DNA from: an uncultured delta proteobacterium
GTDB lineage: Bacteria; Desulfobacterota; Desulfobacteria; Desulfobacterales; SG8-13
DNA: 64,000 nucleotides
Reading direction: 5' to 3'
NCBI GenBank assembly: GCA_963792945.1
Contig: CAWBYM010000004.1
Coordinates: 333,800 to 397,799, forward strand
The notes under the pieces were generated by a model. It did no database searches, had not been told where the DNA came from, and saw only the letters and a program-made list of their open reading frames with translations. This document shows, one piece after another, positions 45,966 to 46,293 of the stretch. Numbering within the stretch: the stretch's first letter is position 1; each line of letters begins with the position of its first letter. The translations under genes were made by a program, and so were the position numbers.

Positions 45966-45995
45966 TTGACAATCCGGGGCGGTATCCGTTAACAT
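45966..45995 (+). promoter_or_regulatory. candidate sigma70 promoter of the trp leader
   Basis: TTGACA (45966..45971), an 18-nt spacer, then TAACAT (45990..45995). It lies about 25 nt upstream of the leader ATG. Confidence 0.45.
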
Positions 45996-46020
45996 CCTTA
46001 AAATTTTTAACAGAGGTTCC

Positions 46021-46119
46021 ATGCAAAACATGCCCATAACCATAAATCAAACCGAAATCGATCTTACCTGCTGGTGGTGGTGGACCATGGTACTTGGGCT
46101 CGCCAGCGGGAGGAATTAG
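46021..46119 (+). CDS. trpL: trp operon leader peptide (32 codons) with four consecutive Trp codons
   Basis: MQNMPITINQTEIDLTCWWWWTMVLGLASGRN. TGG x4 at 46072..46083, AGAGG 4 nt upstream of the ATG. It lies directly upstream of two terminators and trpE. Confidence 0.75.
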   Translation: MQNMPITINQTEIDLTCWWWWTMVLGLASGRN

Positions 46120-46147
46120 GCCAAATAAACATTAAATAGCACCAAAA

Positions 46148-46179
46148 CCGTGGGCAGCTCAAAAGCTCCCGCGGTTTTT
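46148..46179 (+). terminator. attenuator terminator 1
   Basis: ccgtgggcagct / caaa / agctcccgcgg: an 11-bp stem with a 1-nt bulge and one G-U pair, followed by TTTTT (46175..46179). Confidence 0.65.
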
Positions 46180-46188
46180 CGATATAGA

Positions 46189-46221
46189 AGGGCCGGGGAG
46201 CAACCCCGGCCCTTTGTTTTT
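46189..46221 (+). terminator. terminator 2 (strong GC hairpin plus T tract)
   Basis: agggccgggg / agcaa / ccccggccct: a 10-bp perfect stem followed by ttgttttt. Confidence 0.7.
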
Positions 46222-46293
46222 GATTATTAAACATGAGCCTATCACGAACATAAGGATGAGGTTCATGTTGACCTTCCATGAAAGGTGATTCAG

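Follow-up and report, generated by a model that had tools for sequence, protein, structure and literature searches.

A predicted ribosome-mediated trp attenuator with two tandem terminators upstream of trpE in Desulfobacterales

How can a single leader peptide control two transcription terminators that stand one behind the other in front of the same operon? This question is raised by the region upstream of trpE in a 64,000-nucleotide stretch of DNA from an uncultured delta proteobacterium of the order Desulfobacterales, which we call here the window. A previous reading of its letters (the original prediction) had proposed a ribosome-mediated trp attenuator in this region, with a leader open reading frame (ORF) carrying four Trp codons and two tandem terminators, the second of which was left without any route for read-through. 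When we read positions 45700-46500, all the features that it listed were found where it had placed them, and its core is supported by conservation. Our sequence comparisons strongly support an attenuator with two tandem terminators before trpE, and folding models suggest that it is probably built from six RNA segments in which one stalled ribosome would release both terminators through a relay of alternative helices. We number the segments 1 to 6 and name each helix by the two segments that form it, so that terminator 1 (T1) is helix 3:4 and terminator 2 (T2) is helix 5:6.

A translatable short ORF with its own ribosome-binding site (RBS) lies between a promoter-like site and trpE (Table 1). 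The leader ORF, its AGAGG motif and its four consecutive TGG codons are all present as originally claimed, as is the start of trpE with an RBS of its own. When the 64-kb window is translated in six frames, the string WWWW appears a single time. We found no further amino-acid leaders in the window, and scans of the leader peptide against Pfam and NCBIfam gave nothing at E <= 10. Relatives of TrpE were searched among 185,579 reference genomes, and the closest ones belong to uncultured Desulfobacterales/Desulfobacteraceae (95% identity in locus L001 and 63-69% in most others). A W-run leader precedes trpE in nearly all of the Desulfobacterales loci (L001-L028), and also in L035-L037 (two labelled Thermodesulfobacteriota and one Pseudomonadota), in five Lentisphaeria/Victivallaceae loci whose peptides end in WWWQTRLSP (L039, L041, L042, L045, and L046), and in Sedimentisphaerales and Phycisphaerae loci. 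The clustered Trp codons are thus conserved among relatives, as runs of at least two W and mostly as WWW or WWWW, in a total of about 35 genome loci, to which 46 metagenome loci can be added (see below). The original prediction had made its case depend on finding such W-rich leaders before trpE in related genomes, and their conservation favours an attenuator.

Both intrinsic terminators announced between the leader ORF and trpE are present, downstream of this single leader ORF and 8 nt apart (from the end of the T1 helix at 46178 to the start of T2 at 46187). T1 has an energy of -21.4 kcal/mol for the full helix and -18.7 kcal/mol for its core, whereas T2 reaches -24.8 kcal/mol with 12 pairs, nine of them G-C, followed by a GUUUUU tail (UUUGUUUUU up to 46221). 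A consensus terminator scan found T2 and missed T1 because of the bulge in the T1 stem. Both are kept in 31 of 33 close relatives, with T2 lying 5-32 nt after T1, and the two other loci (L006 and L007) have T1 only. Tails with at least six U in nine positions follow T1 in all 33 relatives and T2 in 29 of the 31 that possess it. In an alignment of 31 sequences (A1), the T1 and T2 helices are paired in 94.1% of cells, against 35-60% in slid controls, and both sides have changed in 17 of the 22 pairs. A covariance model built on T1 plus T2 has one match in the window, on the + strand (46140-46222, 70.9 bits; 23.9 bits on the - strand), and one upstream of trpE in every close relative with both terminators. 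Across loci, its scores are 50-77 bits on the + strand and 24-46 bits on the - strand, a large difference that indicates an element acting at the RNA level. The two hairpins have in common the core CCGUGG...CCACGG. We rejected CCGYGG...CCRCGG as a common terminator type of this genome since, in the window, the motif followed directly by a U tract occurs only at T1 and T2.

Upstream of the terminators, hairpin 1:2 (46062-46114, -23.5 kcal/mol) contains the pairing that the original prediction had described, which is borne out as stated: 46067-46076 (CCUGCUGGUG) with 46101-46110, 10 bp comprising eight Watson-Crick and two G-U pairs. The end of segment 2 lies 3-8 nt upstream of the leader stop codon, and a ribosome positioned at this codon would cover the segment. 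Its motif UUGCC-N-R-CGG is conserved (alignment A2) and encodes the recurrent peptide tail G-[LF]-A-x-G. The same segment can form a canonical 2:3 antiterminator, in which UUGGGCU-c-GCC-a-GCGG (46094-46109) pairs with CCGU-g-GGC-AGCUCAA (46148-46162) at -21.2 kcal/mol as computed with RNAduplex, or -19.1 kcal/mol as a hairpin. By computation, helix 2:3 excludes the terminator and helix 1:2 overlaps the regulatory codons. The 2:3 core is paired in 78.7% of cells versus 28-44% in slid controls, and its variable extension, in which the upper stem and loop of T1 are paired with the leader codons that precede GCC, covaries: among 19 lineage representatives, the mean energy with the own partner is -4.55 kcal/mol versus -2.55 +/- 0.37 kcal/mol with permuted partners (p ~5e-5). 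A whole block of 2:3 has even switched at the level of a clade, UUGCC with GGCAA in most loci being replaced by UUUAUCCAC with GUGGAUAAA in L035-L037. Most Desulfobacteraceae leaders also end in YCAGNCUGA, a motif conserved at the nucleotide level and containing the stop codon (A2 columns ~55-70). Its copy in L012 (2868-2878) seems to base-pair with the CUGG of the first Trp codon, a contact that would lengthen helix 1:2. The motif is missing in the lineage of the window, where the leader ends in AAUUAG.

The answer to the question of the second terminator probably lies in helix 4:5. The original prediction had found no alternative pairing for T2, a statement that this helix refutes: the 3' arm of T1 together with its U tract can pair with the 5' arm of T2 and three bases of the T2 loop, in a hairpin of -24.0 kcal/mol that is conserved in the family, comparable in energy with T1 and T2, and mutually exclusive with both of them. 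Read-through of T2, which had been left unexplained, now has a possible explanation of a computational nature. Over 11 pairs of 4:5 in A1, standard pairs occupy 95.3% of cells, against 43-57% in slid controls, and seven pairs have changed on both sides. For the mirror pairing 3:6, the figure is only 48% in the register drawn first and 70% in the best one, because the U-G wobbles of 4:5 turn into A-C mismatches there. The complementarity thus has a direction and does not merely reflect the resemblance between T1 and T2. As a control, we used 79 unrelated hairpin-plus-U elements of the same DNA. The mean energy of segment 4 with its own segment 5 is -17.8 kcal/mol, versus -9.2 kcal/mol with the 5' arms of these unrelated hairpins, and in 17 of the 31 loci none of the 79 matches the energy of the own 4:5 pairing. 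Six segments are thus able to form either 1:2, 3:4 and 5:6, or 2:3 and 4:5, with balanced helix energies (-19 to -25 kcal/mol) that fit a switch.

Table 1. Positions in the window of the features that make up the putative trp attenuator
Feature	Position	Strand	Remarks
Promoter-like site, sigma-70-type	45966-45995	+	TTGACA 45966-45971, 18-nt spacer, TAACAT 45990-45995; 10/12 consensus matches
Shine-Dalgarno sequence of leader ORF	46012-46016	+	AGAGG, 4 nt 5' of ATG; read from sequence
Leader peptide ORF (trpL-like)	46021-46119	+	32 codons plus UAG (46117-46119); product MQNMPITINQTEIDLTCWWWWTMVLGLASGRN
Segment 1 (5' arm of 1:2)	46062-46082	+	Overlaps the Trp codons
Four consecutive UGG (Trp) codons	46072-46083	+	Proposed ribosome stall site
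Segment 2	46094-46114	+	Partner: segment 1 (via 46091-46114) or segment 3 (via 46094-46109)
Segment 3 (T1 5' arm and loop)	46144-46163	+	Partner: segment 4 (T1) or segment 2 (via 46148-46162)
Terminator 1 (helix 3:4)	46144-46179	+	AAAACCGUGGG-C-AGCU / CAAA / AGCU-CCCGCGGUUUU; helix to 46178, U tract 46175-46179
Relay helix 4:5	46165-46201	+	5' strand 46165-46180 GCUCCC-g-CGGUUUUUC; 3' strand 46187-46201 GAAGGGCCGGGGAGC; 6-nt loop 46181-46186
Terminator 2 (helix 5:6)	46187-46221	+	GAAGGGCCGGGG / AGCAA / CCCCGGCCCUUU; helix to 46215
trpE RBS and start codon	46281-46288 (RBS), 46294-46296 (ATG)	+	RBS AAAGGTGA; read from sequence

We folded growing transcript prefixes from the presumed start at 46002 with 30-nt ribosome masks; folding with and without such masks had been proposed by the original prediction. 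The shorter prefixes show the expected switch. A prefix that stops at 46162 has 2:3 as its minimum-energy fold, either without a ribosome or with one stalled on the Trp codons. At 46181, a ribosome at the stop codon (mask 46102-46131) allows T1 to form. At 46200, the minimum-energy fold combines 2:3 and 4:5, and it is T1 instead if the stop-codon ribosome masks segment 2. We infer from the sequence the termination at either U tract, the ribosome footprints, the folding order and the response to tryptophan, which together suggest the following mechanism. When tryptophan is plentiful, the ribosome would pass the four UGG codons, reach the UAG and cover segment 2. Segments 3 and 4 would then form T1, and any polymerase escaping it would meet T2. 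Without translation, 1:2 would form, with the same terminating effect. If charged tRNA-Trp runs short, the ribosome would stall on the Trp codons, covering segment 1 and freeing segment 2, which would capture the newly made segment 3. Left without a partner, segment 4 and its U tract would in turn capture segment 5 before segment 6 is transcribed. Under starvation neither terminator would thus form, and transcription would enter trpE. The termination state would consist of 1:2, 3:4 and 5:6, and the read-through state of 2:3 and 4:5. With two terminators in series, lower basal read-through is expected while induction is kept. The odd conservation of the stem sequences would be explained because segment 2 is coding and segments 2-5 must each fit two partners.

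Several observations weigh against this relay. Once the prefix reaches 46222, the equilibrium fold contains T1 and T2 whatever the masking state, so that read-through must rest on kinetic trapping. In classical attenuators the decision is likewise kinetic. Column-based covariation of the 2:3 core is not significant within the Desulfobacteraceae set because the core is nearly invariant. A given T1 segment finds good partners in the T2 segments of other species too (mean ~-14.7 kcal/mol), which limits the covariation in the conserved core of 4:5. This complementarity is partly cheap, as a U tract fits any purine-rich flank, and T2 may have been duplicated from T1, so that 4:5 need not all reflect selection. 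At individual loci, the 4:5 helix is weak in L011 (-7.5 kcal/mol), and both hairpins have poor U tracts in L023 and L026. In addition, the shuffle controls overstate significance, since the sequences are related.

These points bring in a simpler explanation, conceivable but in our view rather improbable, in which a standard four-segment attenuator (1:2, 2:3, and 3:4) is followed by T2 as an unregulated fail-safe or insulating terminator taking a fixed fraction of the transcripts, 4:5 being a by-product of T1 duplication and of the pairing of U tracts with purines. Two of the relatives, L006 and L007, manage with T1 alone, the CCGUGG core common to T1 and T2 is consistent with duplication, and both the good pairing of foreign T2 segments with segment 4 and the constant presence of T2 in the minimum-energy fold once segment 6 exists agree with it as well. 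However, a constitutive hairpin of -25 kcal/mol with eight U in its 9-nt tail, located right before trpE, would throttle the operon in starvation too. An independent terminator needs no specific stem, yet the 5' arm of T2 fits segment 4 in 95% of cells, compared with only 70% for 3:6, and 4:5 in the window reaches the T2 loop bases 46199-46201, which T2 does not need. The conserved CCGUGG core of T2 would likewise be superfluous for an independent terminator, and would be explicable by the chain of pairings. A further version, that of the original prediction, has segment 2 (46106-46112) disrupting T1 via its 3' arm (46166-46172) and states no route around T2. GCGGGAG is indeed complementary to CUCCCGC at these positions, and the resulting 2:4 duplex, a pairing specific to the lineage of the window, is real and fairly strong both in the window (-18.4 kcal/mol) and in L001 (-18.7 kcal/mol). 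Competition for the 3' arm only does not stand, since the canonical 2:3 pairing is stronger in the window, is able to form earlier, before segment 4 is transcribed, and wins in 29 of 33 loci (family means of -16.4 versus -10.7 kcal/mol for 2:4). Moreover, 2:4 leaves T2 unexplained, whereas 4:5 accounts for it. A mechanism based on 2:4 appears very unlikely.

The hairpins could also serve purposes other than attenuation. Their repeat cores are conserved in sequence as well as in pairing, and palindromes have been assigned to transcription factors in places where attenuators were predicted (Naville and Gautheret, PMC2965389), so that the inverted repeats CCGTGG...CCACGG might be DNA operators at which a transcription factor forms a roadblock downstream of the promoter. 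Nevertheless, the loop lengths differ widely among species, many stem positions keep a G-U pairing that is possible only in RNA of the + strand, only one strand has U tracts behind the two repeats, the covariance model distinguishes the two strands as described above, and the repeats always lie downstream of the W-run leader ORF. We consider operators extremely improbable and rejected them on the strand asymmetry, the G-U pairs and the variable loop lengths. Alternatively, the main product might be a trans-acting small RNA, namely the terminated leader of ~178 or 220 nt, with hairpins conferring stability or chaperone binding, an activity that may coexist with cis attenuation. Sub-threshold matches to two-hairpin small RNA families (BjrC68 with 20 bits, ar15, and mmgR) and the precedent of rnTrpL, the trans-acting trp attenuator RNA of Sinorhizobium meliloti (PMC6614838), speak for it. 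By contrast, these Rfam matches fall well short of the gathering scores and come only from generic terminator hairpins, and cis attenuation already explains the W run and the conserved alternative helices, so we give this possibility only a slim chance.

Within the attenuator reading, the closest parallel in logic is the enterobacterial trpL, with which our element shares tandem Trp codons, the 1:2, 2:3 and 3:4 helices, a terminator before trpE, and the opposition between a ribosome at the Trp codons and one at the stop codon. This logic, worked out by Yanofsky in E. coli, is established knowledge, and the E. coli leader has 14 codons, two of them for Trp, whereas the one described here has 32 codons and four for Trp. 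The enterobacterial leader (RF00513, PF08255), from another phylum, has no detectable homology in sequence or structure, and only the element described here possesses the second terminator and the additional relay helix 4:5. It does not belong to RF00513 (Trp_leader) or PF08255 (Leader_Trp): neither 44000-54000 nor 45950-46300 gave a match to RF00513 at E <= 10, and no Rfam family reached its gathering score over the leaders of seven representative loci. The topology is rather that of the his leader of Salmonella and E. coli, also made of six segments that form A:B, C:D and E:F or else B:C and D:E, where a stalled ribosome flips all the downstream helices and only E:F terminates. This last property is not found here, where the middle helix 3:4 is also followed by a U tract (33 of 33 relatives) and is the sole terminator in L006 and L007. 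The regulatory codons are for Trp instead of His and there is no homology. Two adjacent Rho-independent terminators are mentioned for the erm(K) leader of Bacillus licheniformis in a passage of PMC4335068 that cites Kwak, Choi and Weisblum (1991). As that passage presents it, erm(K) has in common with our element one stalling leader peptide and two Rho-independent terminators, but its signal is an antibiotic-bound (macrolide-stalled) ribosome and its target a resistance gene, whereas the Trp codons and the trp operon point elsewhere here.

Outside enterobacteria, the trp attenuator of S. meliloti has a single terminator, unlike the two found here. It is a ribosome-dependent attenuator with a trpL ORF upstream of trpE(G), and its released RNA (rnTrpL) and peptide have functions in trans (PMC6614838). 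Naville and Gautheret (2010) stated that, to their knowledge, leader peptides were unproven outside Proteobacteria and Actinobacteria, and they noted a tandem terminator in some rimP leaders (PMC2965389). Rodionov et al. (2004; PMC545781) was ruled out as the source of a delta-proteobacterial trp attenuator, as tryptophan is unmentioned there. A full-text literature search yielded no description of the element. The class of mechanism is well known; as far as checked, the occurrence in this lineage and the two-terminator relay appear to be new.

How widespread is the module? A pattern scan of metagenome contigs gave at least 120 stretches with a loose pattern, about half of which are probably chance matches (no W-run leader and no trp or DAHP synthase gene downstream). 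This pattern forces the 4:5 core, and we therefore excluded the metagenome set from the pairing statistics. Among 61 loci searched with the covariance model, 49 matches scored at least 47 bits over the full model. Among the matches listed, a W-run leader is present in 46 of the 120 stretches, and the downstream gene is trpE in 38 loci (33-75% identical to the TrpE of the window), trpD in three (L131, L150, and L157), and the DAHP synthase gene in one (L165). The combination of a W-run leader and T1-T2 before trpD suggests split trp operons, each with its copy of the attenuator. A second W-rich leader (MKHLTQQYYFWCWRWITGEKECADRFEAD) occurs in L018 (2413-2700, minus strand), divergent from the trp leader and followed by a T1-like hairpin with eight U and then by a DAHP synthase gene; its location suggests that the module acts as well on the step that opens aromatic amino-acid synthesis. 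Similar second matches on the opposite strand, a few hundred nt away, were observed in L183, L135, L096, L139, L088, and L165. L034 (1900-2870) carries the leader twice, as a repeat of ~194 nt with 97% identity that runs from the middle of the leader ORF to T2. The two copies flank an insert of ~520 bp with coding potential, the promoter being on the first copy, and this duplication is either a real insertion with target duplication or an assembly artefact. Three Sedimentisphaerales loci (L029, L030, and L032) show a different solution before a related TrpE, with spaced instead of consecutive Trp codons (MLNMNTTWLSWRSWLLWAV) and a single terminator.

A wider reading seems possible to us, although we hold it tentatively and as somewhat less than probable: the element would represent an uncatalogued RNA family, widespread among Desulfobacterales and further bacteria of sediments, with one stall sensor, two terminators and a domino of four mutually exclusive helices, in which T2 acts as a second and later decision point, the module having been copied before DAHP synthase and trpD. 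A ribosome resuming translation after the polymerase has passed T1 would strip 2:3, upon which 3:4 would re-form, segment 5 would be freed and T2 would fire. If this is true, induction would occur only on sustained stalling, which amounts to a kinetic filter.

The gene upstream of the leader encodes a phospholipase-D-like protein (PLD domain, Pfam) and has its own terminator-like hairpin at 45926-45940, and the leader has a promoter-like site of its own. Transcription of the leader RNA would start near 46002, judging from this site, and almost every related locus has a CTTGACA box ~100 nt upstream of the W run. The leader region folds with z = -5.2 relative to 200 dinucleotide shuffles. Downstream, trpE (46294-47772) is followed by trpG, D, C, F, B, and A and then by a DAHP synthase gene, with the corresponding Pfam matches (Chorismate_bind/Anth_synt_I_N, GATase, Glycos_transf_3, IGPS, PRAI, PALP, Trp_syntA, and DAHP_synth_1). 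A stable hairpin at 46229-46271, between T2 and trpE, is absent in L001 and unconserved past the nearest relatives, and a weak one at ~46271-46286 (ACCUU/AAGGU) overlaps the Shine-Dalgarno sequence of trpE. The untranslated trpE-trpG spacer (47773-48079) is ~300 nt long and only 5-23 nt in most relatives. Rfam has no match for it, and its + strand lacks any ORF longer than 30 amino acids; the same insert is found in L001 (87% identical), and different inserts of 108-259 nt occur in L014, L034, L035, and L037.

Ribosome-mediated attenuation is a textbook mechanism, known in detail from a few model bacteria in which each sensor governs one terminator. Our results indicate that the same logic is at least encoded in Desulfobacterales and neighbouring uncultured lineages, where no Rfam, Pfam or NCBIfam model covers it, and that it comes with two serial terminators which one stalled ribosome would free, a design that we did not find described in the literature searched. 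A covariance model of the element would mark trp-regulated genes (trpE, trpD, and DAHP synthase) in many metagenome-assembled genomes. Two of the loci belong to named cultured species, Desulfosudis oleivorans (L012) and Desulfocicer vacuolatum DSM 3385 (L027), in which the model is testable. If the relay works, basal expression would be lowered multiplicatively while inducibility is kept, and the element would provide a simple natural template for engineered multi-terminator switches.

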